Of a stretch of 64,000 bases of DNA, positions 2,959 to 63,171 are shown in pieces (position 1 is the stretch's first letter; each line of letters starts with the position of its first letter). A program made the position numbers and the translations under genes. The stretch comes from Minisyncoccota bacterium. GTDB lineage: Bacteria; Patescibacteriota; Minisyncoccia; Phycocordibacterales; CAJBRS01. The notes under the pieces are model-generated. The model was not told the origin of the DNA, did not search any database, and saw only the letters and a program-made list of their open reading frames with translations. The stretch lies in assembly GCA_017881075.1 (NCBI GenBank), contig JADGRH010000006.1, forward strand, positions 48,154-112,153, written 5' to 3'.

Positions 2959-4449
2959 ATGAAGAAAGACCCCTTTTTTGAAAAAATGGCAAATCTGGGT
3001 TTAGCCCTCACTTATGATGATGTTCGCCTGCGTTCCGGCTATTCGGAAACTGATCCGCGAGATGTTTTGATCGAGAGTTTCTTTAGTAAAAATATTCCCC
3101 TGCACTGTCCTATTGTCAGTGCCCCAATGGATACGGTTACCGAAAGCAAGATGGCAATTGCCATGGCTAAGCTTGGCGGTTTAGGCATTATTCACAAAGG
3201 TCTCACTCCCGAGATCCAATCAAATCATGTCAAAAAAGTAAAACTTCACCTGAATGGCTTGATAGAAAAACCAATCACTGTAAAAGCGGATGATATCGTT
3301 GGAGCAATTGAAGAAAGACAACAAAATAAAGACTACGGTTTTCACAGTTTCCCGGTAGTGGATGAGGGTGGAAAATTAATCGGCCTGATTAGCCGCAACG
3401 ATTTTGATCTGAATAATGATAAAAGTCTCCGCGCCAGAGATATCATGACAGTTCTCGCGGAATTAATCACTGCTCCGGTAAACACTTCTCTGGAAGAAGC
3501 GTACTCTATTTTGAAACAGGCTCGGAAAAAAATACTGCCCCTCATCAACGATAAAACCGAACTTACTGGTTTGTATGTTTTCTCCGATGTTAATCGGCTT
3601 TTAACTGATAGTTCCAGTCTTTATAATGTCGATAAATCGGGACATTTACGCGTTGGGGCAGCCGTTGGCACCGGAAATGCTGAAATTGAAAGAGCTTCTC
3701 TTCTAGTGAGAGCGGGAGTTGATGTTTTAGTTATCGATACCGCTCACGGTGACTCCAAGAATGTTTACGAAACTTTGAAAACATTAAAACAATCGCACCC
3801 TAAAGTTGATATTGTGGTTGGAAATGTTTCGGAAGGAGAATCGGCCAAACGGCTTGTTGATGCCGGAGCTGATGGCATCAAAATTGGACAAGGGCCGGGT
3901 TCTATTTGCACCACTCGAATTATTGCTGGCATCGGCTGTCCCCAAGTGACAGCTGTCTATAATTGCGCCAAGGCCGTTCGTGGCTCCGGTGTTCCGGTCT
4001 GCGCCGACGGCGGCATTAAAAATTCCGGCGACATTACCATCGCCCTTGGCCTTGGCGCCCATTCGGTAATGCTTGGCCGAGTCTTGGCTGGCACAACAGA
4101 GACTCCCGGGGAAATACGGCTCACTGCCCAGGGCCGGATGAAAATTTACCGGGGTATGGGATCTCTTGGAGCAATGCAATCTAGTCGAACGGCACGAGAG
4201 CGTTACCGCCAAGGAGAAGACGATATTAAGAAGCTGGTGCCTGAAGGAATAGAGAGTGTGGTGTCCTATCAAGGAGATCTTGCCAACGTTCTTTTTAAAC
4301 AAATTGGTGGATTACGAAGTGGTATGGGCTATGTTGGCGCTAAAACGATTGCGGAACTCCAAGAAAAAGCAGACTTCCATCGTCTATCCGGTGCCGGCAT
4401 GATAGAATCACATCCTCACGATGTTACTATTATAGATTCTGCTCAATAA
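2959..4449 (+). CDS. guaB: inosine-5'-monophosphate dehydrogenase
   Basis: IMPDH catalytic TIM barrel with GSICTTR active-site loop and a tandem CBS insert; 496 aa. Confidence 0.95.
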
Positions 4450-4463
4450 ATCCGAACAATACA

Positions 4464-5972
4464 GTGAGTTCGTCACCAAAAAATTATCAGCAATTACTTG
4501 TTGGAGTAAAGACTCTGGCTGTTGTCTGCAATCAGTGGGGCGACACCGGCAAGGGAAAATTTGTGGATGTTTTTGCTGAATGGGCCGACATCATTGCCCG
4601 CGGTACCGGCGGAGCTAATGCCGGGCATACAATTTCCCTCAACGGCAAAGAAAATATCTTCCATCTTGTTCCATCCGGTATTCTGCATGATGGAGATGGC
4701 AAGATAAATATCATCGGTAGTGGTGTTGCCCTTGATCCGAAGGTTGTTTGTGAGGAGTTGGATATGTTAAAAGAGGAAGGTTTGAGCTATAAAAATTTGA
4801 AGATCTCCAAAAATGCCAAGTTGGTTCTGCCACAGCACCTGGTAATGGATAGAGCCAGAGACACGATTGTGGATGGAAAGATCGGCACTACTGGCCGAGG
4901 CATTGGACCGGTTTACGAAGATTATGTGGCCAGAATTGGGCTAACAATTAATGATCTTTTGAATAAAGATATCTTTGTTAAAAAACTGAAGCGCAACCTG
5001 CGCGACAAAATAATGTTTTTAAAATTGGCTGACCAAGAAATTATTAAAAATATCATGCAGCATGAGCATCTTAGTAAAGGCCGTTACTGGAGTGCTGAAA
5101 ACATTTTTGATATTGATGCCATAACTCAAAATTATATGCGATATGGTGAGAGACTATCCGACATGATTGATGATACCGATACATATCTCCGAGAGGCTAT
5201 AGGCAAGAAGAATATTTTACTTGAAGGAGCTCAAGGAAATCTCTTGAGCGTTGATATCGGCACATATCCTTATGTGACATCATCGGATTGCTCCATTTCC
5301 AACTTAGTGAAAGGTGTGGGATTAAAAGAAAATGATGTTAACTTAACTCTTGGAATCGTTAAAGCCTATTATATGACTCGGGTGGGTGGTGGACCATTCC
5401 CTACAGAATTGGGGAGAGATAAATATGAAGAGCTATGCAGTAAAAGCGGCACGACAAAAGAAACAGAAAAGAAACAGTTTGGCCACCCGACAGTAAACGA
5501 AAAAGACGAATTCCTTCAAAGTATCGGCATCAGAATGGCGGGGGCAGAATATGGCGCAACCACTGGCCGACCACGCCGAATTGGCTGGCTTGATCTAGCG
5601 CTCTTGAGACATTCCGTAATTTATAGCGGTCCAAACGTCATTTTAACAAAACTGGATGTCTTAGATGAATGTAAAGAAATTAAAATTTGCCATGCATATG
5701 AATATGTAGGCGCACCGTATCGAGTAGGCAAGATTACTCTAAAGAAAGGAGATCGAATTGACATCGCAATTATGGATAATGAAATAATGAAGAATTCAAA
5801 ACCGATTTACCAAACATTTCCCGGCTGGCAAAGCCCGCTCGGAGATATCAGAAATTTTGAAGATCTCCCCACGAACTTCAAAAACATCCTGAAGTTTGTG
5901 GCAGACCAGACCGGAATAAAAACCCGAGTCATCTCCGTCGGACCGGACCGAGATCAAAATATATTTATCTAA
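4464..5972 (+). CDS. purA: adenylosuccinate synthetase
   Basis: QWGDTGKGKFVD P-loop and GIGPVYEDK motifs. 502 aa, about 70 aa longer than typical PurA, with an internal insertion around KSGTTKETEKKQ. Confidence 0.93.
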   Translation: MSSSPKNYQQLLVGVKTLAVVCNQWGDTGKGKFVDVFAEWADIIARGTGGANAGHTISLNGKENIFHLVPSGILHDGDGKINIIGSGVALDPKVVCEELDMLKEEGLSYKNLKISKNAKLVLPQHLVMDRARDTIVDGKIGTTGRGIGPVYEDYVARIGLTINDLLNKDIFVKKLKRNLRDKIMFLKLADQEIIKNIMQHEHLSKGRYWSAENIFDIDAITQNYMRYGERLSDMIDDTDTYLREAIGKKNILLEGAQGNLLSVDIGTYPYVTSSDCSISNLVKGVGLKENDVNLTLGIVKAYYMTRVGGGPFPTELGRDKYEELCSKSGTTKETEKKQFGHPTVNEKDEFLQSIGIRMAGAEYGATTGRPRRIGWLDLALLRHSVIYSGPNVILTKLDVLDECKEIKICHAYEYVGAPYRVGKITLKKGDRIDIAIMDNEIMKNSKPIYQTFPGWQSPLGDIRNFEDLPTNFKNILKFVADQTGIKTRVISVGPDRDQNIFI

Positions 5973-6438
5973 TTCCACTATCGAATTGAATGTTTAGGTG
6001 AGAAAATGTATTGGCTTTGACCACTACTGATTGAGGCGACATGCTGGGCAGACCAGACTTGTTTGCTTGGCGAATTTCATAATTGCCCGGCGAGAGATTT
6101 ATTGTAAATTTACCATTACTATCCGACTTAAGTGTATTGATTAACGTCTCCACTCCGTCTCCTGGACCAGCTTTGGAATAGAGATTGAAGGTGGCGGAAT
6201 AAGGTTTATCTTCACATCCAGGTCGTGTCGGACCAGCGCATGTGGGACCGATGGTAACAGTACCTGTTATACCCGAATCCGTAGAGATTGGCGTTGGCGT
6301 TGGGGTTGTGGAGGTGGCAACCGGAGGAATAGTCTCGTTCACATTAGAAACATCCTGATTCTTCACTGAAGTAGTAATGTACCAGACAATGGCCAAAACA
6401 ATGATAATAACAACAATCCATATAATTTTTTTATTCAT
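5965..6438 (-). CDS. hypothetical secreted/membrane-anchored protein with Thr/Pro-rich linker
   Basis: N-terminal TM helix, TTPTPTP linker, then a small beta-rich domain. Confidence 0.45.
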   Translation of the reverse strand: MNKKIIWIVVIIIVLAIVWYITTSVKNQDVSNVNETIPPVATSTTPTPTPISTDSGITGTVTIGPTCAGPTRPGCEDKPYSATFNLYSKAGPGDGVETLINTLKSDSNGKFTINLSPGNYEIRQANKSGLPSMSPQSVVVKANTFSHLNIQFDSGIR

Positions 6439-6983
6439 ATTCTTAATTTATATATTAAATTCCCCATCGAGACAATAGATATCGATTTCATATATCGACC
6501 TGCTTCAAATATGCCAAAGAATGCTCCTGTGTAGAATAGATCTCCAAAAAGAGAATTCTTAAAAAATGGGATAGCCATAGTATAAGACTCCACAAGGCCC
6601 TGCCATGAATGAACATACATAGTCCCGAACTGCCATACAGCCCAATTGGTAACTAAAAAGAAAACGAGAGATGAGCTAATTGTTAATACAATTGTCGAGC
6701 CAATGGTCTTATTTTTCTGAAGATACATGCCCAATAATCCGGCAAGGACGAGACTGCCGTATACAGAAAGCATAATTGGCCAAGAATAAAAACCAATAAT
6801 TGCATCGCTTATTAACATCAGACCAATGATTGTTGGAATTGAATATCTTATTCCAAAATATGCAGAAATAAAAAGTGCGATTGCCGTTACGGGTGTTACA
6901 TTTGCCGCATGAGAAATAAGCCTCATCACTACGCCGAGAATTATTAAAGCAATTAAACTATAAAATATATTTTTCTTAGACAT
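6435..6983 (-). CDS. small polytopic membrane protein, candidate ECF-transporter S component (possibly cobalamin-specific)
   Basis: 182 aa, about 5-6 TM helices. Translationally coupled to the downstream DUF4430 gene and adjacent to the B12-dependent RNR and adenosyltransferase genes. Call is by size, topology and context only. Confidence 0.4.
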   Translation of the reverse strand: MSKKNIFYSLIALIILGVVMRLISHAANVTPVTAIALFISAYFGIRYSIPTIIGLMLISDAIIGFYSWPIMLSVYGSLVLAGLLGMYLQKNKTIGSTIVLTISSSLVFFLVTNWAVWQFGTMYVHSWQGLVESYTMAIPFFKNSLFGDLFYTGAFFGIFEAGRYMKSISIVSMGNLIYKLRI

Positions 6984-7435
6984 TATTGTTGACCTTGAAT
7001 AAATTTAAACTCAACCACATCACCTTTCTGAATTTTATATGTGCTTGCTCCGATTTGACTATATTTATCGTTTACCCAATACTGCCACCAACTTTTTCCG
7101 GAAGGATCTTTGCCTACACCCCCAATTGAATCAATAAATACTCCGAGCTCTCCTCCATAATCCTTATATTTTAAATCAATCTTATTTTTGTCAGCGGCCT
7201 GCTTCAAAACATCGAAGACAGTTGCTCCGTTTGTAATTACAAGATCATTGTATGTCCCTACCTTGCCATTACCGTAATCAACCATCAGGTTTGCTGTTGT
7301 CGCCTGGGTCTGGTTTTGGCTAATTGCTTTAGTGTCCGGGGCCTTATACCCTCTCCCAACTGAAATACCCAACAAAAACACAGCGGCGATAATGACCAAC
7401 CTCCCAATATATGTTAGGAATCTGTTATTTTGCAT
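6983..7435 (-). CDS. DUF4430-domain exported protein (transcobalamin-like beta-domain family)
   Basis: Signal/TM start followed by GATVFDVLKQA...GGELGVFIDSIGG...WQYWVND...KGDVVEF, characteristic of DUF4430. Confidence 0.65.
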   Translation of the reverse strand: MQNNRFLTYIGRLVIIAAVFLLGISVGRGYKAPDTKAISQNQTQATTANLMVDYGNGKVGTYNDLVITNGATVFDVLKQAADKNKIDLKYKDYGGELGVFIDSIGGVGKDPSGKSWWQYWVNDKYSQIGASTYKIQKGDVVEFKFIQGQQ

Positions 7436-7580
7436 AGATGGTTAGGCTAAAAGTGGAGTTTCAAATTGACATCCAGCAAGAGCTGATGCGCAACATACAT
7501 TTTACCCCTTTTTTCTTTGAATCACCGCCTTTGATTGATATACTAATTTAGTAATAATTAACTACTTAAGAATATCACCT

Positions 7581-9896
7581 ATGGCAACCAAAAGGAATGC
7601 CCGAATTGTCGAAGTAATAATTAAAAACATTCAAAAAAGAGACGATTCGATTGTTCCTTTTGATATTCAAAGAATAATTACTGCGGTTAACAAAGCGATG
7701 ATCGCTGCAAGTGAAGGTTCTCTTAAAGAAGCGGAGTCGGTGGCAAATAAAGTATACACCGATGTCCTGCATATAACTAAAAAGTATAAAAACTTTGTTC
7801 CGACGGTTGAAGGCATACAGGATACGGTGGAAAAAGAGCTTATTTTGTCCGAATATGTCCAAACCGCCAAGACTTACATCCTCTACCGAGAAAAACGATC
7901 CAAGCTCCGGGCAAAAGGATTGCGTGTTCCTCCAAAAGTAAGAAAGTTAGCAGAAGAAAGCAAGAAATATTTTAGAAATTCTCTTGGAGAGTTTGTATAT
8001 TATCGTACTTACTCGCGTTGGATTACCGAAGAGGGTCGCCGAGAGACGTGGATCGAAACAGTAGACCGTTACATTTCATTCATGAAAGAGAATTTGGGCA
8101 ATAAACTAAAAGAATCAGAATATAAAGAGATTCGGGAAGGAATTCTCAACCAAGAAGCAATGCCCTCAATGAGACTTCTGCAGTTTGCCGGCCACGCCGC
8201 CCGAAAGACAAGTGTCTGCGCATATAATTGTTCATACATTGCTCCTGAAAAATTTCAAGATCTAGCTGAAATTATGTATATCTCTATGTGCGGTACTGGT
8301 ACTGGATGGTCTGTAGAAAGCCAGAATATTCAAAAGTTTCCACAAATTAATCTGCAGAGTGGTAAGAAGCTTCCGATCCATATAATTCCTGACAATAAAG
8401 AAGGTTGGGCAGATGCGTTGACTCTTGGAATGAATGCATGGGCTCTGGGTCAAGAGATTGATTTTGATTATTCCCTGCTTCGTCCTGCAGGCACAAGATT
8501 GGAAACTATGGGAGGTAAAGCCTCCGGTCCCGAACCTCTGCGACGACTGCTTACATTTACCCGAGAAAAGATGCTCGCTCGACAAGGCAGAAGGCTTCGC
8601 AATATTGATATTCACGACATTATCTGCATGATTGGCGATTGCGTCGTCTCGGGAGGTGTCCGCAGAAGCGCCATGATTTCCCTATCAGACTTGGATGATA
8701 ACGATATTCGTGATGCCAAAAAGGGAGCATTTTATATGAATGATCCCCAAAGAATGTTAGCCAATAACTCTGCTGTATATATTCAAAAACCATCTAACAC
8801 CGAGTTTGTTGAGGAGTGGACTGCCCTTATGAAATCGGGCTCGGGTGAACGAGGTATTTTTAACAGGGGTTCGCTTGCCAATACACTGCCAGAGAGACGA
8901 ATTAAGGTGCTGAAAGAATATGAAGGATACTTTGATCCAACCGGCCAAAATATTATTGGATCTATTGGCACAAATCCTTGCGGCGAAATTATTTTACAAT
9001 CAAAACAATTTTGTAATTTATCGGAAGTAGTAGCACGAGCAGAAGACACCGAGAAATCTCTGCTTCGAAAGATTCGTCTGGCAACAATACTTGGAACATA
9101 TCAGGCAAGTCTTACCCATTTCCCTTATTTATCAAAAGAATGGAAAGAACATTGTGAAAAGGAAGCACTGCTTGGAGTCTCAGTCACCGGCCAGTGGGAT
9201 TGTCTAGCCGTAAGAAATGCAAAAACACTTGAAAAACTGAAGAAAGAAGTAATTAAAGTCAATCAGAAATATGCCAAAAAATTGGGAATCAACCCGTCAA
9301 CCTGCGCTACGGCAGTAAAGCCTTCTGGTAACCTTTCTCAAACAGTTGACTGTTCTTCCGGTATGCACCCTCGTCACGCACCTTACTACATTCGAAGAGT
9401 CCGGATCTCGGCAACCGATGCCTTGTTTAAGATGCTGAAAGATCAAGGGGTTCCCTATCATCCCGAAGTAGGCCAATCAAAGGACAACGCCACCACTTAT
9501 GTTCTGGAATTTCCAGTGAAAGCTCCCGATGGGTCGCTCTATAAAAATGATATTTCAGCCATAGATCAGCTTGAGCATTGGAAGTTGGTAAAGATAAATT
9601 ATACAGAGCATAATCCGTCCGTCACAGTTTCTGTCGGAGAAGATGAGTGGATTGAGGTGGCTAATTGGGTATATAAGAATTGGGACATTGTTGGTGGCCT
9701 TTCTTTCCTTCCTAGAGATAATCATGTCTATCAGCTTGCACCTTATGAAACAATTAATGAAAAGAAGTATCTTGAACTTTCAGAAAGGCTTATGCATATT
9801 GATTATTCCAAGATCATCACTTACGAGAAGACTGATGAGCTTGATATAAAAAAAGAATTAGCTTGTGTCGCTGGTGTCTGTGAGATTGCCTTGTAG
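7581..9896 (+). CDS. nrdJ: ribonucleoside-triphosphate/diphosphate reductase, class II (adenosylcobalamin-dependent), with N-terminal ATP-cone
   Basis: ATP-cone (VIKNIQKRDDSIVPFD...), the NPCGEI active-site motif, and a C-terminal Cys pair; 771 aa. Confidence 0.9.
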   Translation: MATKRNARIVEVIIKNIQKRDDSIVPFDIQRIITAVNKAMIAASEGSLKEAESVANKVYTDVLHITKKYKNFVPTVEGIQDTVEKELILSEYVQTAKTYILYREKRSKLRAKGLRVPPKVRKLAEESKKYFRNSLGEFVYYRTYSRWITEEGRRETWIETVDRYISFMKENLGNKLKESEYKEIREGILNQEAMPSMRLLQFAGHAARKTSVCAYNCSYIAPEKFQDLAEIMYISMCGTGTGWSVESQNIQKFPQINLQSGKKLPIHIIPDNKEGWADALTLGMNAWALGQEIDFDYSLLRPAGTRLETMGGKASGPEPLRRLLTFTREKMLARQGRRLRNIDIHDIICMIGDCVVSGGVRRSAMISLSDLDDNDIRDAKKGAFYMNDPQRMLANNSAVYIQKPSNTEFVEEWTALMKSGSGERGIFNRGSLANTLPERRIKVLKEYEGYFDPTGQNIIGSIGTNPCGEIILQSKQFCNLSEVVARAEDTEKSLLRKIRLATILGTYQASLTHFPYLSKEWKEHCEKEALLGVSVTGQWDCLAVRNAKTLEKLKKEVIKVNQKYAKKLGINPSTCATAVKPSGNLSQTVDCSSGMHPRHAPYYIRRVRISATDALFKMLKDQGVPYHPEVGQSKDNATTYVLEFPVKAPDGSLYKNDISAIDQLEHWKLVKINYTEHNPSVTVSVGEDEWIEVANWVYKNWDIVGGLSFLPRDNHVYQLAPYETINEKKYLELSERLMHIDYSKIITYEKTDELDIKKELACVAGVCEIAL

Positions 9897-9898
9897 CT

Positions 9899-10420
9899 AT
9901 GCTTATTATTTTTACCGGAAATGGCAAAGGCAAAACTACAGCTGCCTTAGGACAAGCTCTGCGGGCGGTAGGAGATGGTAAAAAGGTCCTAATGGTTCAA
10001 TTTATTAAAGGGCCATGGAAATCCGGTGAGGATAGCTCGTATCATAAATTAGAGCCTGATTTAAAAATTGTGAAAACCGGCAAAGGTTTTGTGGGCATTG
10101 GTAATGATACTCTGCCTTTTGAAGAGCATCGAAAAGCGGCTGAAGACGGCCTAAAATATGCGGATGAGGAGGCCTCGTCAAAAAAGTGGGATATCTTAAT
10201 ACTTGATGAGATATGGAATGCTCTCAAACTGAAGTTAATTAGTTCAGAAGCTATTCAGGACTTTATCAACAAGTATGTATCTACAATCGAACATCTTATA
10301 CTGACCGGCCGTGATTGCCCGCCAAAATTCATAGATCAAGCAAACCTCGTTACTGAAATGCGGGAAATTAAACATCCTTTTTCTGAAGGAATAAAAGGGA
10401 CAAAGGGTGTCGAGTACTAA
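9899..10420 (+). CDS. btuR: cob(I)yrinic acid a,c-diamide / corrinoid adenosyltransferase (CobA/BtuR/CobO type)
   Basis: IIFTGNGKGKTTAALGQALRAVGDGKKVLMVQFIKG P-loop signature of the CobA family. Start overlaps the nrdJ stop. Confidence 0.85.
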   Translation: MLIIFTGNGKGKTTAALGQALRAVGDGKKVLMVQFIKGPWKSGEDSSYHKLEPDLKIVKTGKGFVGIGNDTLPFEEHRKAAEDGLKYADEEASSKKWDILILDEIWNALKLKLISSEAIQDFINKYVSTIEHLILTGRDCPPKFIDQANLVTEMREIKHPFSEGIKGTKGVEY

Positions 10421-10438
10421 AGCTCGGGTTTGTTTCAA

Positions 10439-10981
10439 TTAAAGGGCACTGCCTGGCCGCCAGGATCTGGTGAGAAACGGTAACAAATAACGATCAAGTC
10501 CATAATATCCGGCAACCTTTCGGGCAAGAACAATACCTATGGCCAAAGTAAACAAAGTGGGATTGGTACTGACCGTTCCGGCAAGAAGATAGTTCAGATT
10601 CATAAAGAGGCCGAAGAATGCGGCAATTCCTGTCAATATTCCAAGAATAAGAGCGATACCAACAAGAAGTTCCCCATAGGCCACAGCATGGGACCAGATA
10701 TTGGTGTGAGGCAAAACTACATTCTGTAAAAAAGAAGCATACCAGCCCGAGACATCAGCATGAGCGCCTGTGGTTTTTTGCATTGCTCCTTGGACAAAGC
10801 CCGTCAGTGCGGAACCGGCATCCGGCCCTGTCCAAACAGGATTAATAACTTTTTCCCAGCCGGCCACAAGCCATTCCCAGCCGACATACAATCTAACAAT
10901 TAACCAAAACCAAGCAAGACGGGTGTCAGAAAACAAGAACTTAGATATAGACGACCTCTCTAATGAAATTTGTTGAGCCAT
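10439..10981 (-). CDS. DoxX-family membrane protein
   Basis: Four TM segments with the WLIVRLYVGWEWLVAGWEK pattern typical of DoxX/DoxD. Confidence 0.65.
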   Translation of the reverse strand: MAQQISLERSSISKFLFSDTRLAWFWLIVRLYVGWEWLVAGWEKVINPVWTGPDAGSALTGFVQGAMQKTTGAHADVSGWYASFLQNVVLPHTNIWSHAVAYGELLVGIALILGILTGIAAFFGLFMNLNYLLAGTVSTNPTLFTLAIGIVLARKVAGYYGLDRYLLPFLTRSWRPGSAL

Positions 10982-17079: not shown

Positions 17080-17236
17080 ATACAGGAATCGGTCACACAT
17101 AATTTTCTGCTGAAAATTTGCGCGACCCCGCCTCCTCGCCTTCGCTCGTCCGGCCTTGCGCTTTGGGTCCCATCCCAAAGCTCACCTCTCATTACGGCTT
17201 AGAAGTCCGCTGTTCTATCCATTGAACTACGAGGGC
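17080..17236 (-). repeat. tRNA-associated conserved module, copy B, fused to a duplicated 5' portion (positions 1-47) of a tRNA-Arg-like sequence
   Basis: 17193-17236 (minus strand) reproduces the tRNA-Arg acceptor 5' strand variant GCCCTCG, D-arm and full TCT anticodon arm. Then a roughly 110-nt insert contains the shared hairpin (17091-17135) and ends in ..GACCGATTCCT, imitating the T-loop 3' side, 17 nt before the intact tRNA-Arg. Confidence 0.55.
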
Positions 17237-51023: not shown

Positions 51024-52124
51024 TTATTTATTCATTGGGCTCACCAAGTAGAGGAAAGACTTATCATTGACCCCTCTTAGCACTAATGGTTTGCCGGCCC
51101 CATTAAAACTTAATGAGACACTATCTGCTTCTATTGATTGAAAAGAGTCGTTAATATATTTATAATTAAAACTAATTTCAATATCTTCTCCAGAAAGAGC
51201 CGCTTCTAATTTATCTTGATTTTCTCCTACTTCACCATTTTTAGTACTTAACTCAAAAATTTTTTGCTTTGCTGATATCTTCATACTAATTTGATTGAAG
51301 TTATCTGAAAAAATATTAGCCACTTTTAAAGAGTTGATTAAATCTTGTTTCAAAACCACTACTTCGGTAGTTGCTTCTTTAGGAAGAATTTGTTTGTAAT
51401 CAGGAAAGATGCCGTCAATGACCCGGGAAATTAGTCGAATACTATTAACTTCGAAAGAGATTTGGTTTTTACTTAAAAAAACATTTATCTCTCCTTCAGC
51501 TTGTTCTAAGGTCCTGATAATCTCGGGGATGTTTTTAAACGGGATAAGAATTTGGGAAAAATCTTTTTTTTGTTTTACTTTAATTTTTTTTTCAGCTAAA
51601 CGAAAGGAATCGGTGGCCACAAAAACTACCGAGTCGTTGTCTGGGTAGACAAAAATACTGGAGAGTTCTGGTTTCATACTAGAAATAGACGAGCTATACC
51701 AAACAGATTTAAAACCATTTATAAGATCTTTACTATTAAAAGTGAGTTTTTTAGCCCCAGATACCTCAGGGATGCCGGGGAAATCTTCGTGTGGATAACT
51801 TTTTATTAAGGTTTTGTTTCTTTTGGTAGAAATTTGGAGGTTATTGTTTTTAGTCTCTAAAATAATATTTTTCTCTCCTTGTAAACTAGTAATTAGGGTA
51901 TTTAGGGTATTACCCGGAACAGCAACTATTCCAACTTCTTCAGTTTTCACTGGTAAGGTTATTTCAATACCTAAATCAAGGTTGGTTGCTTTTATAACAA
52001 GAAGATTGTCTTTAGCTTCCAATAAAACACACTTAAGAACCGGGAGAGTGGTGTTTCGGGAGGTGATTTTTTCCGCTAAAGAAATAGCGGTGGTAATTTT
52101 TTCTTTTAAACACTCAACTTTCAT
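51024..52124 (-). CDS. dnaN: DNA polymerase III beta sliding clamp
   Basis: Three-domain beta-clamp architecture, 366 aa, directly downstream of dnaA. Confidence 0.9.
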   Translation of the reverse strand: MKVECLKEKITTAISLAEKITSRNTTLPVLKCVLLEAKDNLLVIKATNLDLGIEITLPVKTEEVGIVAVPGNTLNTLITSLQGEKNIILETKNNNLQISTKRNKTLIKSYPHEDFPGIPEVSGAKKLTFNSKDLINGFKSVWYSSSISSMKPELSSIFVYPDNDSVVFVATDSFRLAEKKIKVKQKKDFSQILIPFKNIPEIIRTLEQAEGEINVFLSKNQISFEVNSIRLISRVIDGIFPDYKQILPKEATTEVVVLKQDLINSLKVANIFSDNFNQISMKISAKQKIFELSTKNGEVGENQDKLEAALSGEDIEISFNYKYINDSFQSIEADSVSLSFNGAGKPLVLRGVNDKSFLYLVSPMNK

Positions 52125-52279
52125 TTTATTTATTTAATAACTATTATAATTTTATATATAAATACTTACTATTATATTTAAGGCTGTGGATTTGTGGATA
52201 AAAATATTTAACTATATTCTTAGGTTCTTTTTAGCTTTGGGTGATTGATAAATTGTGGACAAGTGTTTAATAAAAATTT
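52125..52279. promoter_or_regulatory. AT-rich dnaA-dnaN intergenic region with DnaA boxes (candidate oriC segment)
   Basis: TGTGGATAA (52194-52202, perfect reverse complement of TTATCCACA) and TGTGGACAA (52254-52262). Region GC content is very low. The 16-mer tgataaattgtggacaa recurs upstream of dnaA at 53706-53722. Confidence 0.55.
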
Positions 52280-53614
52280 TTAAATAAGGGCTTTTATTTG
52301 GGTAAGCTCCTGAACCAATAAGTTATCCACTTTTAATTCATTCTTTATCTTCTCACAAGAATGAATAACTGTAGTGTGGTCTCTTCCCCCAAGCTTCTGG
52401 CCGATTGATGGGTAGGAAACATTAAACTCTTCCCGTAGAATATACATTGCTAATTGTCTTGGCCTTACCACTTCCTTACGGCGAGTTTTATCATAAATAC
52501 TATCTTCTTCAATGTTGTAAAAACCAGCCACAATTTTTACCACCTCCTTTACTGAAAGATTTTTAATCGGCTTAGCGCTATTTTTCAATAAAGTTTTAAT
52601 CTCCACTAAACTCAATTCCCTACCTCGCACCTGAGATTGATGCATTAAAGAATTCAAAAGTCCTTCCAATTCGCGGATATTTCCTTCAACTGAAGAAGCT
52701 AAATAGTCGGCCACTTCCCTGGGTAGGGTAAAATTATGGGCCCGGCTTTTAGTCTGAAGAATAGCAACCCTTGACTCTTGGTCTGGAGCCGGAATATCAA
52801 CCATCATGCCTGCCACACACCTTGATTTCAGGCGCTCTTCTAGTCCGGGAATAAAATTAGGATGTTTATCAGAAGAAAAAACCAACTGCTTATTATTATC
52901 GTAAAGGTAATTAAAAAGATGGAAAAGCTCCTCCTGACTCTTCTCTTTATTTGAGAGGAATTGAACATCATCCATAATCAAACAGTCATACTTTCGGTAT
53001 TTATCCTTAAAATTCTTCATTTTATTACTCTGAATGCAATTAACTAGATCTTGAGAGAATTTTTCCGAGGTAACGTAATAAATCTTTTTACCACTCTGCC
53101 CTTTCATTTGGTTGCCAATAGCCTGCATTAAGTGAGTTTTACCAAGACCAGTATTGCCGTAGATAAAAAGTGGATTATAAGCAACTGGTTTCTTGATAAT
53201 AGCTTGGGCCGCAGCGTGAGCCAGCTCATTAAAAGGTCCCACCACAAAAGAGTCAAAAGTATATCGAGGGTTTAAATTATCTTCAGGGTTAATATATAGA
53301 TCGGAAAGAGGAAGTTCTTGAGTGGGCATGTGACCGGAGAAAACCGGCGCCTCCTTTGGGGCCTGACTAGCAGAAATAACATATTCAATAGAGCGGACAT
53401 TTTCTTGAAGCTCTCGCAAAATCTTCAACATAGTCTTATGGAACTTGTCGGAGAGCCAGTCTTTAACGAATGGGTTTGGCACCGAAAGAGTAATAATCCC
53501 CTCTTCTTGTTTTAGAACGTAGGTTGGTTTAAACCAAACATTAAAGTTACCTTTTGAAACTAAAAGCTCCACTCGAGCCAGTACTGAATCCCAGAGTTTT
53601 TTATTATCCAACAT
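52280..53614 (-). CDS. dnaA: chromosomal replication initiator protein DnaA
   Basis: AAA+ Walker A GNTGLGKTHLMQAIGN, Walker B, and a C-terminal DNA-binding domain; 444 aa. Confidence 0.95.
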   Translation of the reverse strand: MLDNKKLWDSVLARVELLVSKGNFNVWFKPTYVLKQEEGIITLSVPNPFVKDWLSDKFHKTMLKILRELQENVRSIEYVISASQAPKEAPVFSGHMPTQELPLSDLYINPEDNLNPRYTFDSFVVGPFNELAHAAAQAIIKKPVAYNPLFIYGNTGLGKTHLMQAIGNQMKGQSGKKIYYVTSEKFSQDLVNCIQSNKMKNFKDKYRKYDCLIMDDVQFLSNKEKSQEELFHLFNYLYDNNKQLVFSSDKHPNFIPGLEERLKSRCVAGMMVDIPAPDQESRVAILQTKSRAHNFTLPREVADYLASSVEGNIRELEGLLNSLMHQSQVRGRELSLVEIKTLLKNSAKPIKNLSVKEVVKIVAGFYNIEEDSIYDKTRRKEVVRPRQLAMYILREEFNVSYPSIGQKLGGRDHTTVIHSCEKIKNELKVDNLLVQELTQIKALI

Positions 53615-54179: not shown

Positions 54180-54905
54180 ATGATTGAACACTTCTTTAAA
54201 CCTCTTTTTTATACCCCGCTCTACAACGGACTAATTTTTTTAATTTCCGTTTTACCGGGAGCCAACGTTGGCTTAGCGGTAATTATTTTTACCATCTTAG
54301 TGAAATTAGTTTTGTACCCCCTGACCAAAAGCTCCGTTATCACTCAAGCCAAAATGAAGAAACTTGAGCCGGAACTGGCGGCTTTACGCAAGAAATATGA
54401 AAAAGATAAACAGGAGCAAGCAAAACAAGTCATGGCATTTTACAAAGAAAATAATGTCAATCCTTTCTCCGGTATATGGCTTCTTTTAATCCAAACCCCC
54501 ATTATTTTAAGCCTTTATTACATCTTTTTGAGGGGGGGTCTACCAAACATCAGCACCGATCTGCTTTATCCTTTCATTCATGTTCCGGCGGCCATAAGTA
54601 TGCATTTCTTGGGAATGGATATGGGCAAGCCAAGCATTATCTTGGGAGCTATAGCAGCAATAACTCAATTTTTTCAAATCAGACTTTCAGTGCCAGCTTA
54701 TAAAAAACCGGAGGGTAATGAGCCGGCCTCATTTAAAAATGATCTGGCTCGTAGTATGAATATGCAATTTCGATACGTTCTGCCGATTTTTATTTTTATT
54801 ATCGCCTTGAAAGTTTCCGGTGCTGTCGCTCTCTACTGGATCACCAGCAATCTTTTTATTATCGGACAGGAACTAATCGTCAGAAAAAAGTTTAAGAAGG
54901 GTTAA
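54180..54905 (+). CDS. yidC: membrane protein insertase YidC/Oxa1 family (short form)
   Basis: Five TM helices with a conserved LYPF / NPFSGIWLLLIQ-like core; 241 aa. Confidence 0.85.
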   Translation: MIEHFFKPLFYTPLYNGLIFLISVLPGANVGLAVIIFTILVKLVLYPLTKSSVITQAKMKKLEPELAALRKKYEKDKQEQAKQVMAFYKENNVNPFSGIWLLLIQTPIILSLYYIFLRGGLPNISTDLLYPFIHVPAAISMHFLGMDMGKPSIILGAIAAITQFFQIRLSVPAYKKPEGNEPASFKNDLARSMNMQFRYVLPIFIFIIALKVSGAVALYWITSNLFIIGQELIVRKKFKKG

Positions 54906-56404
54906 CGTAAAATCGTACTTCTCACTGAAGTAGAGGTGGTAGCAGTAGTTGTGGCCGTTGAAGTTGCTGTGGTACTTGTCGACGTTAATGGAGCGGGTGG
55001 CACAGGCGGAGTGATCAAAAGATTCCACAAAGTAAGATCTTTTTTGTTGGTGAACATCAGATAATTTTCATTTGGGTCAAGTGTGAGGTTGGTTGCATCC
55101 ATACTTACTCTGGTTAACTGATTTGGTTGAGCAACCAAAGTCCTGTCTCCTGTTCTTACATTTATCTTCCAAATATTATCCGTAAAAGAAACTGCTCCCT
55201 GATACCAAACATCAGGATAGCTTCCTGATGGAACAGCTAAAGGCACAGCGCAATAGACGACAGCTGTCATTTTTTCGCTCCAGATACATTTTTCAGGAAG
55301 AGTTTTGAGGGAAACTCCCGAGCTTAGACCATTGGCTGGAGTATAGACGTTCAAACTAAAGTTAGAACCATTATTAGCCGAATAAAGGATGGAGGTTAGA
55401 TCCGGAGAAGGCAAAACAGTCAGTCCGGCCACATTTCCAAAAATTTTAGTGAATGTCCCGGCATTAACATTGAGAGAAAAAAGATAACCAGCCACTCCTC
55501 CCGAAGGCTTGGTGGTGAGAAAGATTGTATTAGTACCTGACCAATTAACCAACCATTCTTTAAGAGGATTGGTAAATATTTGTTTTTTTGAGGTGTTGTC
55601 GGGAAGGGCAATTACTCCAGTTGATCCCAGAGCAGTATTTTGCAGATAAAAAATTCGATCTTTTGCCGGCGAAATGGCTAAACTAAACAGATTTGGAGGT
55701 AAAATCGATCCAACCAATTGATATGTTGTGGTTGAGGTAGCTATGACAGCAGGTGTCGATGTCGCCTTGGTTGAAGTAGCTTGCCCCGAGCTTGTCGAGG
55801 GGCTAGTGGTTGCAACTTTAGGCAAGACTAAATTAGCATAATAAGTTTCAATAGTGTTTTCATCAGTGTCTAAATAACGATAGAGGATAGCAGTACCCCC
55901 CTTAACAAATGAAGCGTCATATATTTTAGGAATAGTTGTATTTGAAATTTCTATACTACTTAAAACTTCCGGCTTGGTTTCAAAAATGTGTCCGGTGGCA
56001 CGTTCAACATAACGAATGAAGGTTGTTGGAACCAAAATAGTTTTTAAAACTCCTTTAGTTAATGTGCTGGTGGCGACAACTCTACTCATAAAAGTTGCGC
56101 CAGCAGTTGGAGTATTAGAAACCTGACGCAAGCGTGGAATAGTCACGGACTCTCCATTGTCTGCTTGGATATTTACGGTAGGAGAAGTGGTAGTTCCTGC
56201 TGTTCCGGAATTATTATTAGTGCCTCGAAAGATAGAAAAGAAACCGCCGAAAGGATTACTTTGAGCTCCTCCATTTCCAGCAAGTTTATTAGAGCCGAGT
56301 GATAGGTACCCAATCACTAGAATAACAAGGAGGAGAATACAGACGCAGGCTATAATTGTGTAGAGTATTTTTCGCGACATATCTATTGATGACAAGTGGA
56401 ACAA
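54902..56404 (-). CDS. secreted/anchored Thr/Ser-rich beta-rich protein
   Basis: N-terminal TM anchor, Thr-rich linkers (TSTSTTATSTATTTATTSTS) and repeated beta-strand segments. Adjacent to the T4SS-like genes. Confidence 0.45.
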   Translation of the reverse strand: MFHLSSIDMSRKILYTIIACVCILLLVILVIGYLSLGSNKLAGNGGAQSNPFGGFFSIFRGTNNNSGTAGTTTSPTVNIQADNGESVTIPRLRQVSNTPTAGATFMSRVVATSTLTKGVLKTILVPTTFIRYVERATGHIFETKPEVLSSIEISNTTIPKIYDASFVKGGTAILYRYLDTDENTIETYYANLVLPKVATTSPSTSSGQATSTKATSTPAVIATSTTTYQLVGSILPPNLFSLAISPAKDRIFYLQNTALGSTGVIALPDNTSKKQIFTNPLKEWLVNWSGTNTIFLTTKPSGGVAGYLFSLNVNAGTFTKIFGNVAGLTVLPSPDLTSILYSANNGSNFSLNVYTPANGLSSGVSLKTLPEKCIWSEKMTAVVYCAVPLAVPSGSYPDVWYQGAVSFTDNIWKINVRTGDRTLVAQPNQLTRVSMDATNLTLDPNENYLMFTNKKDLTLWNLLITPPVPPAPLTSTSTTATSTATTTATTSTSVRSTILR

Positions 56405-57417
56405 GTTCCGTAAAAAGTAAAAGTAATATTATGACTTTGATTTATGTTGTTGTTATTACCAGGTGACCATAACCCAAGAGCATTTGCCGCCGCCGGCGAC
56501 ATCTCTCCCCAACCAGTTGCCCCATTATCTCCCGCTACCGCCATTATTGATCGAGGGGGTTGGGCGGTGTTATCAGTGATCAATACCGGTGTGCCCATAG
56601 GAATACCAGAGTTGCTTGGTACGGCAACGTAAGGAACATTAAAGGCATCTAAACTATGTCCATTTGGCTGATAAGATGTACCTGATGTCCAGGTGCTGTC
56701 CCAACCAGGATTATTTCCTCCATCAGTATCCAAGGCCACATTGTTTGCCTGATGGGGCATACCATTTACCACATTCCCATTTGGATCAATAAAATAAGAA
56801 CTGCTTCCATCCACCGGATTCACACCAGTGTAGCCATTATTATAATCCGTATATGTTCCATCACTCTCGTTACGTATCTGTGCTACCCCACTATCTCCTC
56901 CAGCAAGCCCGACTGGCGTAACTCCACTCCCAGTAGGAGCTTGTCCTCGCGGATTATTCAGACTGTCAGCTGTAACATTCACTCCTCCAATATTCGGCTC
57001 GGTGTTAAGTAGTTGTGGGTTGATAGTATTTAAGAGGAGATATGCTCCCAAGGCAATCAACAATCCCCACAAAGCCGAAGTAATTTTATCCTTTCCATCC
57101 TCTTTGCCCCCAATAGCATCGGTAGACATATATTTAATACCTCCCAAGACAATCATGACAACGGCCAGACCCGTGGCAATGGCCACCCCCAGTCGGAACA
57201 AGCCATTTAAATAACCAGTTAGATTATCAGATGTAGTAGAGGGTAAATATCCTGTTATAGGAGCGAGAGGAACATACGGAGTACCACCAACTGCCGAAGC
57301 ATTGCCGGAAGCCCCGATTCCAGCGGCCGATACAATAAATGGAAGAAAAATAAATAAAAAAAGGGATAAATAAACCAAACCCGTCAACGATAATTTTTTG
57401 AATTTAGAAGGTAACAT
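56383..57417 (-). CDS. VirB2/TrbC-like T4SS pilin with long Gly/Asn/Thr-rich C-terminal extension
   Basis: Long signal-like N-terminus, then two hydrophobic segments LGVAIATGLAVVMIVLGGIKYM and ITSALWGLLIALGAYLLLNTI, matching TrbC/VirB2 topology. 344 aa is much longer than canonical pilins. Confidence 0.45.
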   Translation of the reverse strand: MLPSKFKKLSLTGLVYLSLFLFIFLPFIVSAAGIGASGNASAVGGTPYVPLAPITGYLPSTTSDNLTGYLNGLFRLGVAIATGLAVVMIVLGGIKYMSTDAIGGKEDGKDKITSALWGLLIALGAYLLLNTINPQLLNTEPNIGGVNVTADSLNNPRGQAPTGSGVTPVGLAGGDSGVAQIRNESDGTYTDYNNGYTGVNPVDGSSSYFIDPNGNVVNGMPHQANNVALDTDGGNNPGWDSTWTSGTSYQPNGHSLDAFNVPYVAVPSNSGIPMGTPVLITDNTAQPPRSIMAVAGDNGATGWGEMSPAAANALGLWSPGNNNNINQSHNITFTFYGTCSTCHQ

Positions 57418-58447
57418 TGTTGCTTAATCCAAAACTAATCATTAAATTATTCGCCGCTTCCTGAAGAAAAGTTAAATTACTCAAAACATCTGTTGAAATT
57501 AAAGATTGCCCTTCAACTATACCATCCGGTTTTCGAAAAACGACACTATTCTGATTTGCTGACAATGTGTTAATCGAACTATTATTAATAGCCCACTGGT
57601 ATTTTAGTGAGGAAGAAGACGGACTATTAGTAGAAAAATAATAAGGATAGGCGCTTAATTTGAATTCAGTCTCTTTTAGAGCAAACTGATCTCGGAGGGC
57701 GTTATTGAACAACACACCGTACAGTGGATTATTTTCATAAAGTAAAACTTGAGGATTAACAGAGCCGACCGATATCGCACCTTCTCCCACCACCTCGTTC
57801 TTTATAGAATTGGCTTTTACTGAAATATTGACCGGGTGATTCAAAACATCACCACTCACCGTCAAAGTATTTTTGCCATAGCCAGAGCGATCCCCCAAAA
57901 TTTCATCATCCTGACTCCATGTGTAGATAAGATTTTGCGGACTGATCCTTACTCCGTTTAGGACTAAATTTGGTAAAGCCACAAAAGTCAGATTTCCTTC
58001 CGGCTGGTGTAGTTTCTTTCCATTATAAAAAGGTGGAACATATGAATCGGCTTCCCAAACAAGGTCAATATTTCCAGGATTGATCACTACTCTCTTGGTG
58101 ATCTTAATCCCATTAACTGGCAAGATTAAAATAGTGATATCCGAGACTGAGCCAATTTTGCCAGTATTAAAATTATATGTAATTATACCGACTCCACTCT
58201 GCGAAACCTTGTTATTTAAAAGCCAGGAAATAGTAGCCCTGTTTAAGTCGGTGCCAAAGGCCTCTAAACTGATTGAAACGTTTTGATTAGGCCCAGGATT
58301 CTCCGGGTTTACATGCACGCTAATTTGCTCTTCAAATCCCGGAATAAGGCTGGGAATAGAGGGGATATCATATTGGGCCAAGGCGCGAGACACCAAAAAA
58401 GAGAAGAAAAAAAGGACGCTTACAATAATTAACAAAATTCTTTTCAT
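57404..58447 (-). CDS. secreted hypothetical protein
   Basis: Signal peptide, 347 aa, beta-rich. Part of the same minus-strand operon as the VirB4 genes. Confidence 0.45.
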   Translation of the reverse strand: MKRILLIIVSVLFFFSFLVSRALAQYDIPSIPSLIPGFEEQISVHVNPENPGPNQNVSISLEAFGTDLNRATISWLLNNKVSQSGVGIITYNFNTGKIGSVSDITILILPVNGIKITKRVVINPGNIDLVWEADSYVPPFYNGKKLHQPEGNLTFVALPNLVLNGVRISPQNLIYTWSQDDEILGDRSGYGKNTLTVSGDVLNHPVNISVKANSIKNEVVGEGAISVGSVNPQVLLYENNPLYGVLFNNALRDQFALKETEFKLSAYPYYFSTNSPSSSSLKYQWAINNSSINTLSANQNSVVFRKPDGIVEGQSLISTDVLSNLTFLQEAANNLMISFGLSNNVTF

Positions 58448-58497
58448 TATTTAAATTATATAACTTATAGCCAAATCTGCCACTAAGCGGCCTCGCG

Positions 58498-59055
58498 CTA
58501 ATCTTCTCTCGGTGCTCTAATGTCATTCATCGACTGTGGCCGATTATTGAAATTCGGCCGGACGATGTTGTTGGAGCCTCCTCTAACATCTTCTGTACTC
58601 ACCGATCGATTGAGATCTGGCCGCACCCTCGACTGAGTTGTTTGAGGTCGCGGACCACTTAAATTACTTCCGCCTATTTTTGAACCAGGCACTCTTGCGG
58701 CAATATTTTGCAAATTTGTTCTAACATGATTAACACTTCTGACTGTCATTATCACACTGACTGTCCAAGCGAACCAACTGGTAAAAGGAATAAAACCCAA
58801 AGCAATTCCTAACCAAAAAGACATTGCTCTTTTGGTGCTAGAAAAAGTTACTCCTTTTGTCTTAAACCAAACATAAAATGTTAAACTAGCCAGCACATTA
58901 ATCAAAAATTCAAGCATTAATCCAACACCGGTTCCTATAATGGGAATTAACATAATCAAATCAGCAATGGCTTCAAGAACGTCAAAAAAAATAGAGACAG
59001 GAATCATCAGCCATAGGGTTGCTGAAGAAATTTGGGGGTTTCGATTTGGCTCCAT
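58498..59055 (-). CDS. polytopic membrane protein, possibly T4SS-associated
   Basis: Four TM helices in the first 110 aa, polar Arg/Asn-rich C-terminal tail. Confidence 0.4.
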   Translation of the reverse strand: MEPNRNPQISSATLWLMIPVSIFFDVLEAIADLIMLIPIIGTGVGLMLEFLINVLASLTFYVWFKTKGVTFSSTKRAMSFWLGIALGFIPFTSWFAWTVSVIMTVRSVNHVRTNLQNIAARVPGSKIGGSNLSGPRPQTTQSRVRPDLNRSVSTEDVRGGSNNIVRPNFNNRPQSMNDIRAPRED

Positions 59056-59060
59056 TTCTT

Positions 59061-60878: not shown

Positions 60879-60894
60879 GAAAGTATTATATCAC

Positions 60895-61533
60895 TTAAGA
60901 TAGGGCTATTGGCTTCTCCGTGTCTCCCGGATTGAAGATCTTATAGAACAATTCAATCAATTCTTCGGTGCCAAGCTGGACGATACGAATGCCGCAGCGA
61001 ACCAGGCCCTGCTCTACCACATCAACTCTCTGCTCGAGTTGGGTGCGATGTTCTTCAAAATCGTGCCCAGCTTCCTCTGCCATTTCTCCTTCCGTTCTTT
61101 TCTTTTTCATAAAATTACCGAAGCCTTTTTTAGCCTGTAAAATAGCCGGAGTAAAAGGAATGACTACGAAGAAACTTTTAGACATTATATTAGAGTTGTC
61201 GGTAAAGTTTTTAATAAACTCTATGTATTCATGAGTCTGGATCTTCATCAAATCAATTGTTTGTTCTTTCTCGGTCTGCTCCAAGAGGGCAATATAAGGT
61301 CGAATATTAAGCTTTCTTGACTCAATAAAGATTTGAATGGAAAAATTTAGAGAGTTGAGAAAGTTTTGGAATTGGAAGATGATTGAAGTTTGTTCGTCTT
61401 GGGATTTAAGAGCGAAGTTCAGGGAAGAGGTCATAATAATAGAGCGAAGAGAGCCATCTTTTAAGACGATCACTCCGTCTCGGATCTCTTTGATCGGTAC
61501 AAACTCTTGAGTTGCTTTGGAAATTGTAGCCAT
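60895..61533 (-). CDS. virB4: VirB4-family N-terminal domain (separate ORF)
   Basis: FVPIKEIRDGVIVLKDGSLRSIIMTSSLNFALKSQDEQTSIIFQFQNFLNSL resembles the N-terminus of Gram-positive-type VirB4 proteins. Stop TAA at 60895-60897 is followed 16 nt later by the ATG of the ATPase ORF in the +1 frame. Confidence 0.5.
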   Translation of the reverse strand: MATISKATQEFVPIKEIRDGVIVLKDGSLRSIIMTSSLNFALKSQDEQTSIIFQFQNFLNSLNFSIQIFIESRKLNIRPYIALLEQTEKEQTIDLMKIQTHEYIEFIKNFTDNSNIMSKSFFVVIPFTPAILQAKKGFGNFMKKKRTEGEMAEEAGHDFEEHRTQLEQRVDVVEQGLVRCGIRIVQLGTEELIELFYKIFNPGDTEKPIALS

Positions 61534-61541
61534 TCCCTTAA

Positions 61542-62366: not shown

Positions 62367-62396
62367 ATTTACCGGAGTTTAACTCCCATAATCCTT

Positions 62397-63146: not shown

Positions 63147-63171
63147 TTTTATCGAAAATTATAACTAATCT

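Follow-up and report, generated by a model that had tools for sequence, protein, structure and literature searches.

A DUF4430 and DUF6580 gene pair beside a class II ribonucleotide reductase in a Minisyncoccota genome: a probable module for corrinoid scavenging and use

A stretch of 64,000 nucleotides (nt) from the genome of a Minisyncoccota bacterium (GenBank assembly GCA_017881075.1, contig JADGRH010000006.1, positions 48,154 to 112,153), referred to here as the window, carries a compact locus that combines genes for a DUF4430 protein, a DUF6580 membrane protein, an adenosylcobalamin-dependent class II ribonucleotide reductase (RNR; NrdJ) and an adenosyltransferase (CobA). The locus is very probably a self-contained module for the scavenging and use of a corrinoid (vitamin B12). 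Its closest homologues are found in Parcubacteria/Paceibacterota-type genomes of the Candidate Phyla Radiation (CPR).

In the proposed pathway, the membrane-anchored DUF4430 protein would expose a transcobalamin-beta-like domain outside the cell and capture cobalamin or a related corrinoid, which it would hand to DUF6580, a putative six-helix carrier of the type represented by the S-components of energy-coupling factor (ECF) transporters. DUF6580 would carry the ligand through the membrane, presumably by toppling as S-components do. Once in the cytoplasm, the corrinoid would be adenosylated by CobA to adenosylcobalamin (AdoCbl), the predicted radical cofactor with which an RTPR-like NrdJ would make deoxyribonucleotides; the ATP-cone of this enzyme is proposed to place it under dATP/ATP control. 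B12 binding, the hand-over from DUF4430 to DUF6580, the direction of transport and its energy source are all steps that we infer.

The locus and its predicted proteins

An earlier note on this DNA, made from the sequence alone, had named four genes of the locus. A check of the open reading frames (ORFs) of the window found all four at the coordinates given there, and Pfam and NCBIfam matches agree with the families proposed. The minus strand carries the DUF4430 gene (6983-7435, 150 residues; PF14478, E 1.2e-18) and the DUF6580 gene (6435-6983, 182 residues, six transmembrane (TM) helices, no cysteine; PF20221, E 4.5e-40). Across a divergent intergenic region of 145 nt (7436-7580), the plus strand carries nrdJ (7581-9896), encoding a class II RNR identified from Pfam and TIGR02505 as RTPR-like with an N-terminal ATP-cone, and cobA (9899-10420), encoding a CobA/BtuR-type ATP:cob(I)alamin adenosyltransferase of 173 residues (PF02572, TIGR00708). 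Scans for promoters and terminators placed a promoter-like site for nrdJ at 7517-7544 on the plus strand and a terminator-like hairpin after cobA at 10410-10427. The nrdJ stop codon had been described as overlapped by the adenosyltransferase gene; this is incorrect, as the junction reads TAG-ct-ATG and leaves a 2-nt gap. For DUF6580, the database gene call (P0001, 163 residues) starts at Met20, but the Pfam match begins at residue 6, and the 182-residue start was therefore kept.

The earlier description of the DUF4430 and six-helix genes as a unit divergent from nrdJ is correct as far as it goes, but a third coupled gene lies outside the range it covered (5965-6438, minus strand, 157 residues). 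The DUF6580 start overlaps the DUF4430 stop by 1 nt (TAATG), and the ATG of the third gene overlaps the DUF6580 stop by 4 nt (ATGA), making the minus-strand unit one of three genes that are translationally coupled through these overlaps. The third gene, supported by its ORF and this junction, is probably co-transcribed with the DUF4430-DUF6580 pair. Its product combines a TM helix at the N-terminus with a linker rich in Thr and Pro and a domain that weakly resembles prealbumin/CarboxypepD_reg (PF13620/PF17802, sub-threshold). No significant homologue was detected in the other 80 loci of the survey described below, where none lies downstream of DUF6580. A weak domain of the same kind also occurs inside a large DUF4430 protein of one of these loci (L028).

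The DUF4430 protein matches PF14478 with 67.7 bits (cutoff 23.8). Its AlphaFold2 (AF2) model (predicted local distance difference test score, pLDDT, 81.8) comprises a TM anchor (residues 4-27), a disordered linker (residues 30-42) and an SLBB beta-grasp domain (residues 46-147). In a Foldseek comparison of this model with the PDB, the top 19 matches (E 3e-7 to 1.2e-5) consist of 3U7Z, a bacterial DUF4430 structure, and of cobalamin-binding beta domains from intrinsic factor, transcobalamin and haptocorrin; the model shares with them a beta-grasp fold bearing a hairpin insert. Target-normalised TM-scores for isolated beta domains are 0.72-0.81, and the matches that follow the top 19 are generic ubiquitin-like folds with E >0.02. 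One of the matches, 5NP4, is the isolated human transcobalamin beta domain with cyanocobalamin, so that a beta domain alone can hold B12. Fold and context together point to cobalamin binding by the DUF4430 protein. The earlier association of this family with cobalamin uptake is supported by the fold matches to B12 binders, by the linkage to DUF6580 and by riboswitches in related loci.

In transcobalamin, B12 is sandwiched with the help of an alpha/alpha-toroid partner domain, whereas the window protein consists of a beta domain alone on a membrane anchor. Many related loci encode a second, large secreted DUF4430 protein (500-980 residues) with weak alpha/alpha-toroid matches (Prenyltrans/SQHop_cyclase), usually from a gene between the small DUF4430 gene and DUF6580 (e.g., L020 7413-9779; L005 7928-9982; L012 5908-7716; L028 3605-5581). 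Judged by their predicted domains, these alpha/alpha-toroid plus DUF4430 proteins are the complete two-domain transcobalamin architecture in CPR bacteria.

The DUF6580 protein matches PF20221 over residues 6-162 with 138 bits (cutoff 27), and no named ECF family or NCBIfam model. Proteins of this family are 160-200 residues long. A first search found 256 DUF6580 homologues, and all those listed are annotated PF20221; an exhaustive search of the family yielded 6,227 representatives (50 % identity), of which 4,429 have E<=1e-10. An AlphaFold model built from 68 homologues (pLDDT 95.1) has a six-TM S-component fold, in agreement with the earlier view of this protein as S-component-like, and at the level of the model the assignment of DUF6580 to the ECF S-component fold is settled.

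Although a PDB search with a single DUF6580 sequence gave no match, the family profile compared with all PDB sequences (E<=10) matched CbrT (6FNP chain A) with an E value of 2e-4 over 76 residues. The same search also returned a rhodopsin, and BtuM was absent from its results at this threshold. A comparison of 6435-6983 with CbrT-type S-components, as the earlier note had suggested, thus gives a profile match, and neither this match nor the fold leads to an unrelated transporter family, the outcome which that note had considered fatal to its reading. In the alignment, DUF6580 and CbrT have in common an invariant Arg where helix 1 ends, the loop-1 motif N-x-x-P and the helix-3 motif S-D/N-x3-G-F; pairwise, the two are marginally similar (E 0.05). 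Homologues of CbrT belong to PF12822/PF07155 and not to PF20221, which is the sole family matched by the window protein; DUF6580 thus forms a family of its own that is distantly related to CbrT.

Residues with assigned roles in other S-component-type proteins are not kept in DUF6580. A BtuM-type Cys ligand is lacking: the window protein and 35 of 68 relatives contain no Cys, and no alignment column reaches 30 % Cys. A His in loop 1 (His25) is present in 67 of the 68 sequences. The helix-1 AxxxA motif used for docking on EcfT (PMC11109136) is likewise not conserved. Residues A16xxxA20 of CbrT align with DUF6580 positions 11 and 15, the former mostly Leu, Ile or Val and the latter Ala in only 18 of the 68 sequences; both are Ile in the window protein.

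One family member, P0217 (337 residues), is a fusion of DUF6580 (residues 5-165), an extra hydrophobic helix (IGIILLIVALVLALGFYFIYF) and DUF4430 (residues 255-329). Both termini of S-components are cytoplasmic, and the extra helix is therefore what placing DUF4430 outside the cell needs. The predicted topology of this fusion supports direct cooperation of DUF6580 and DUF4430 at the outer face of the membrane. A second candidate fusion, P0166 (372 residues), was rejected, as its N-terminal 196 residues contain no domain and are probably a gene-call artefact.

The ATP-cone of NrdJ (PF03477, 69.4 bits, cutoff 25.8, E 4e-19) spans residues 16-107 (nt 7581-7901) and is accompanied by the Pfam RNR_Alpha and barrel domains. 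The best NCBIfam match is the RTPR model TIGR02505, at 287 bits below its equivalog cutoff of 340, and the closest solved relative is L. leichmannii RTPR (1L1L, E 7e-51). By these matches NrdJ is RTPR-like, not a strict equivalog, with an additional ATP-cone. The thiyl-radical loop (NPCGE, residues 465-469) and a C-terminal redox pair (CVAGVC, residues 762-767) are present, and we take the C-x4-C spacing of the latter to equal that of the Cys731/Cys736 pair of the L. leichmannii enzyme. The RTPR-like NrdJs of the window and of seven related loci (L005-L007, L056, L065, L073, L081) are about 30 residues longer than the solved RTPR, and their catalytic loop lies some 45-60 residues nearer the C-terminus than in the L. 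leichmannii enzyme, a shift expected from an N-terminal ATP-cone; the cone is Pfam-confirmed in the window protein only. None of these RTPR-like NrdJs has an adjacent NrdR, while the dimeric-type NrdJs of other loci are usually preceded by it.

CobA matches PF02572 (185 bits, cutoff 25.7, E 1.5e-54) and narrowly exceeds the threshold of TIGR00708 (169 bits, cutoff 167.75); its P-loop, GNGKGKTT, is at residues 7-14. ORFs of at least 140 residues throughout the window were scanned against Pfam, leaving aside a few listed ORFs that overlap longer genes. None of them encodes another RNR, EcfT/CbiQ, an ATP-binding cassette (ABC) ATPase, BtuCDF or a cob/cbi product, and NrdJ is, as originally proposed, the only RNR among them. 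Searches with tblastn for NrdR, a PduO-type adenosyltransferase and B12-radical-SAM genes in the window were also negative.

Gene neighborhoods and riboswitches in related loci

Related loci were drawn from species-representative genomes, mostly of CPR bacteria, as the best 80 (those most similar to the query) of at least 581 candidate DUF6580 loci. Neighbors within 5 kb were clustered without prior labels, and recurrent clusters were then annotated. Gene calls recovered DUF6580 in 76 loci other than the window, 74 of which include enough upstream sequence to examine gene order. Several titles of metagenome-assembled genomes (MAGs) in this set ("uncultured Gammaproteobacteria", "Saccharibacteria", from automated pipelines) look unreliable.

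In 65 of the 74 testable loci, the gene directly upstream of DUF6580 is a co-oriented DUF4430 gene. NrdJ lies within 5 kb of DUF6580 in 22 of 76, and an adenosyltransferase in 16 of 76, where either the CobA type or the unrelated PduO type (PF01923, E 1.3e-42) fills the same slot. NrdR (10 of 76) and B12-binding radical-SAM genes (5 of 76) are less common neighbors, and at least one independent B12 marker is present in 60 of the 76 loci. The commonest compact order is NrdR > NrdJ > (CobA or PduO) > DUF4430 > DUF6580. Linked NrdJs belong to two subclasses, one RTPR-like (approximately 770 residues, C-terminal C-x4-C) and one dimeric (800-1100 residues, Cys-rich zinc-finger-like tail). The linkage thus persists although the enzyme that uses B12 and the one that activates it each occur in non-orthologous versions, as functional coupling predicts. 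Two Bacteroidota loci (L077, L078) lack DUF4430 and have the order cobalamin riboswitch > TonB-dependent receptor (647 residues) > DUF6580; a third locus (L068) has a TonB receptor fragment before DUF6580. Co-localization with a btuB-type TonB receptor is consequently a feature of some family members, and not of the window.

Riboswitches for B12 accompany DUF6580 in 36 of the 76 related loci. At Rfam gathering level, AdoCbl riboswitches lie directly before the operon in four CPR loci (L013, L014, L018, L019), an AdoCbl-II riboswitch lies between PduO and DUF4430 in L048, and a Cobalamin riboswitch lies between CobA and DUF4430 in L051. In L028, from an actinomycete-labelled MAG, the order is riboswitch > DUF4430 > DUF4430/toroid > DUF6580, and the riboswitches of the Bacteroidota loci L077 and L078 score 119 and 107 bits. 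A CPR covariance model, built from only four AdoCbl hits and run against 1.33 Mb of locus sequence, found 36 matches with E<0.01, none of them on the strand opposite to DUF6580. In 34 cases the match sits immediately before the leading DUF4430 gene of an operon that runs in the same direction, and no gene of the other strand intervenes. In three of four loci re-checked, sub-threshold Rfam B12 matches occur at coinciding coordinates.

Base pairing among 32 aligned hits supports these assignments, with the caveat that the alignment was fitted to the model: 95.5 % of cells are paired, a share that falls to 76.5 % after shuffling and to 33-51 % after sliding of the partners; compensatory cells number 99 against 25 expected, and 10 of 17 pairs vary on both sides. 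Many of the riboswitches fall below Rfam gathering scores, including L005 7470-7580, L006 6601-6725, L008 7067-7194, L009 6686-6820, L020 6685-6791 and those of about 20 more loci. Rfam scores of, for example, 43.6, 33.9 and 28.6 bits compare with cutoffs of 50 and 31.5, and the CPR model scores are 45-92 bits. Rfam-based surveys probably undercount riboswitches in CPR bacteria.

No cobalamin riboswitch was detected in the window itself. At Rfam gathering thresholds the whole window yielded only tRNAs; relaxation to E<=10 for 7300-7750 returned noise and no cobalamin riboswitch; and the CPR-trained model, run over 5800-10600 with filters off, found at best an 11-bit match within coding sequence. 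From these three negative scans the 145-nt region is concluded not to be a B12 riboswitch, as the earlier note had judged from the letters. Inspection of 7436-7580 by eye revealed no convincing NrdR box. L005 and L006, the closest relatives of the window with the divergent nrdJ layout, have a riboswitch in a longer intergenic region, while L007, like the window, has no riboswitch. To judge by these scans, expression in the source genome is not controlled by a B12 riboswitch, unlike that of about half of the related loci.

Known systems and the mode of transport

CbrT of L. delbrueckii is encoded in an nrdJ-cbrS-cbrT-pduO cluster, and its ECF complex has been solved (PDB 6FNP; Santos et al. 2018, PMC5997447). 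Lactobacillales-type loci retrieved around a CbrT homologue (L085-L087) have the order RTPR (743 residues) > DUF4430 (129 residues) > DUF4430 (127 residues) > CbrT (PF12822) > PduO. DUF4430 genes therefore occupy the cbrS position, between RTPR and the CbrT homologue, from which we infer that CbrS is a DUF4430 protein. In L085 (6001-6600), the cbrT frame stops after 135 residues and goes on in another frame, an apparent frameshift or assembly error.

The window locus has the same context as L085-L087, bringing together an RTPR-type NrdJ, a DUF4430 protein as at the cbrS position, a protein of S-component fold and an adenosyltransferase. It is the CPR counterpart of the Lactobacillus cluster, with DUF6580 in place of CbrT and CobA in place of PduO. 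The two also differ. The membrane protein belongs to PF20221 and not to PF12822/PF07155, and it does not conserve the CbrT helix-1 AxxxA; the adenosyltransferase is of the CobA type instead of the PduO type; NrdJ has an ATP-cone, which is missing from the solved RTPR; and nrdJ is divergent from the uptake genes. CbrT works with an ECF module, as DUF6580 may or may not do. A recent horizontal origin of the locus from the Lactobacillus cluster was rejected, as identities are low: 27 % over 760 residues between the window NrdJ and the RTPR of L085, 34 % over 44 residues between the window and Lactobacillales-type DUF4430 proteins, and E 0.05 for DUF6580 and CbrT.

BtuM is a solitary S-component-type B12 transporter of Proteobacteria in which Cys80 in loop 3 is a cobalt ligand (Rempel et al. 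2018, PMC6072759; PDB 8OVV/6FFV). DUF6580 differs from BtuM in having no equivalent of Cys80, with the near-invariant His25 of loop 1 instead, in showing no detectable sequence similarity to it (E<=10), and in its pairing with an extracytoplasmic DUF4430 binder, for which BtuM has no counterpart. The classical type II ABC importer BtuCDF, with BtuB, is similar in providing high-affinity corrinoid uptake, often under B12-riboswitch control, but is unrelated in fold and mechanism, and no BtuC, BtuD or BtuF was found among the scanned window ORFs.

Burroughs, Iyer and Aravind (2007, PMC1796856) defined a "transcobalamin-like SLBB" clade, noted its alpha/alpha-toroid fusions and predicted B12 scavenging. 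Scavenging by bacterial proteins of this kind had thus been predicted before, and what is new here is that the CbrS/CbrT-NrdJ-adenosyltransferase logic is built on a different, unstudied S-component family. In contrast to the proteins described in 2007, the window DUF4430 protein is partnered with DUF6580 and not with CbiO/CbiQ-like genes.

The uncertain step of the pathway is how DUF6580 would be energized. We lean slightly towards a BtuM-like carrier that works without a dedicated ECF module. A conventional group-II S-component, served by EcfA-EcfA'-EcfT encoded elsewhere as CbrT is in Lactobacillus, is a serious possibility, if somewhat short of an even chance. CbrT, the sole solved relative of DUF6580 detectable by sequence, uses a shared ECF module (PMC5997447), and transcobalamin-like SLBB genes usually occur in operons with CbiO/CbiQ-like genes (Burroughs et al. 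2007, PMC1796856). Against such a module, no ABC ATPase motif is present in any called ORF of at least 60 residues across the 64-kb window, nor is EcfT, CbiQ or ABC_tran among the scanned ORFs, although group-II modules are by definition encoded apart from their S-components, so that absence nearby says little. Neither ABC nor EcfT genes recur as neighbors of DUF6580 in 77 loci. The idea that ABC-like ORFs found nearby by motif form a hidden ECF module was dismissed, as the seven checked with Pfam are ZnuABC, exporter or SbcC/SMC proteins. The absence of the CbrT docking motif, with Ile at both positions in the window protein, also argues against an ECF module, as does the Bacteroidota order of a TonB receptor followed by DUF6580 with no ABC genes, which mirrors the btuB-btuM context in which BtuM acts alone (PMC6072759). 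Carried further, DUF4430 and DUF6580 may, as a tentative proposal, constitute a distinct type of B12 importer that is widespread in CPR bacteria, in which an ECF-free solitary carrier is served by a membrane-tethered binding protein resembling transcobalamin.

Several observations weigh against corrinoid uptake by this pair. The window lacks the riboswitch that supports the B12 assignment in relatives, and it encodes the small beta-domain protein only, without the alpha/alpha-toroid partner of many related loci. In the structural comparison the scores of FolT and RibU come close to that of BtuM, and the ranking of folds therefore does not identify a substrate. The adenosyltransferase requires cob(I)alamin, and a reductase is not evident in the locus. 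Genes in the neighborhood survey were called crudely, by longest ORF, and grouped by single-linkage BLAST clustering, in a sample made up of the loci most like the query, mostly from CPR bacteria. Literature searches found no paper about DUF6580 and only one relevant paper that mentions CbrS. A preprint, moreover, gives heme as the substrate of a transcobalamin-like/ECF operon in L. sakei (10.1101/864751).

The heme assignment, like the missing riboswitch, would suit import of a non-corrinoid (heme, another tetrapyrrole or a vitamin) by DUF4430-DUF6580, with the proximity of nrdJ and cobA incidental. This is very improbable: cobalamin-specific riboswitches precede the operon in 36 of 76 loci from CPR bacteria, Bacteroidota and the actinomycete-labelled MAG; the linkage extends to both subclasses of NrdJ, to adenosyltransferases of two non-homologous kinds and to B12-radical-SAM enzymes; and in structure the DUF4430 domain closely matches B12 binders only. 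It is similarly hard to credit that DUF6580 is not a carrier at all and serves as a membrane dock, a sensor or a shape-type protein while B12 enters by another route. The S-component fold does occur in 5TMR-LYT sensor kinases and in MreD. DUF6580 proteins, however, at 160-200 residues have no cytoplasmic signaling domain, are homologous in sequence to CbrT, and in Bacteroidota fill the slot of the inner-membrane transporter after a BtuB-like receptor; nor do these operons have a second importer candidate among their linked genes.

Genomic surroundings and dependence on B12

The locus is flanked on the plus strand by the genes for IMPDH (2959-4449) and PurA (4464-5972). IMPDH/GuaA, CTP synthase, NrdR and Dus adjoin other DUF6580 loci (e.g., L001/L020), which suggests a loose nucleotide-metabolism neighborhood around them. 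The dnaN and dnaA genes (51024-53614, minus strand), which mark the replication-origin region, are approximately 42 kb from the locus. The last 2 kb of the window (62001-64000) have an unusually strong strand bias (GC skew -0.28, AT skew -0.24). A run of type IV secretion system (T4SS) or conjugation-like genes occupies 54902-63146 on the minus strand and includes several ORFs without a Pfam match; a VirB4/TraG-like ATPase (59061-60878), a PrgI-family protein (61542-61988) and a T4SS pilin domain protein (56383-57417, sub-threshold match) are encoded there, all on the minus strand. A 100-nt tRNA match at Rfam threshold (17137-17236, minus strand, 29.3 bits) exceeds the usual tRNA length and possibly includes an intron.

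The earlier note took the locus to imply that DNA precursor synthesis in this organism depends on scavenged corrinoids. Within the 64-kb window nothing contradicts this. That a class I or class III RNR is encoded outside the window, which would make B12 dependence less than strict, is rather unlikely, though the possibility deserves weight: the DNA examined is the 64-kb window only, and many anaerobic CPR genomes carry the class III enzyme NrdD. Against a second enzyme stand the absence of any other RNR from the scanned ORFs, the position of nrdJ with the IMPDH and PurA genes near dnaA, like that of a core housekeeping gene, and the finding that NrdR, the global nrd repressor, directly precedes linked NrdJ in relatives. 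The housekeeping context and the NrdR linkage in relatives fit NrdJ as the primary RNR. Literature searches returned nothing relevant on CPR bacteria, cobalamin and RNR together, and no paper joining Patescibacteria and the energy-coupling factor.

At the level of families, the assignment of DUF6580 and DUF4430 to corrinoid uptake is well supported. It gives a role to DUF6580, a family of approximately 4,400 clusters at 50 % identity (E<=1e-10), and to its near-obligate partner DUF4430/CbrS, and it makes DUF6580 a candidate for the second B12 S-component, after BtuM, to act without an ECF module. Were the proposed importer type correct, it would join binding-protein-assisted capture to a class of carriers thought not to use binding proteins, and would supply a function for the uncharacterized CbrS of Lactobacillus. 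That many B12 riboswitches of CPR bacteria score under the curated thresholds of Rfam bears on how such loci are recognized. CPR bacteria are ultra-small, probably symbiotic and unable to make cofactors. In many of them, deoxyribonucleotide synthesis would be hard-wired to B12 obtained from neighbors, a metabolic dependency that can be tested.

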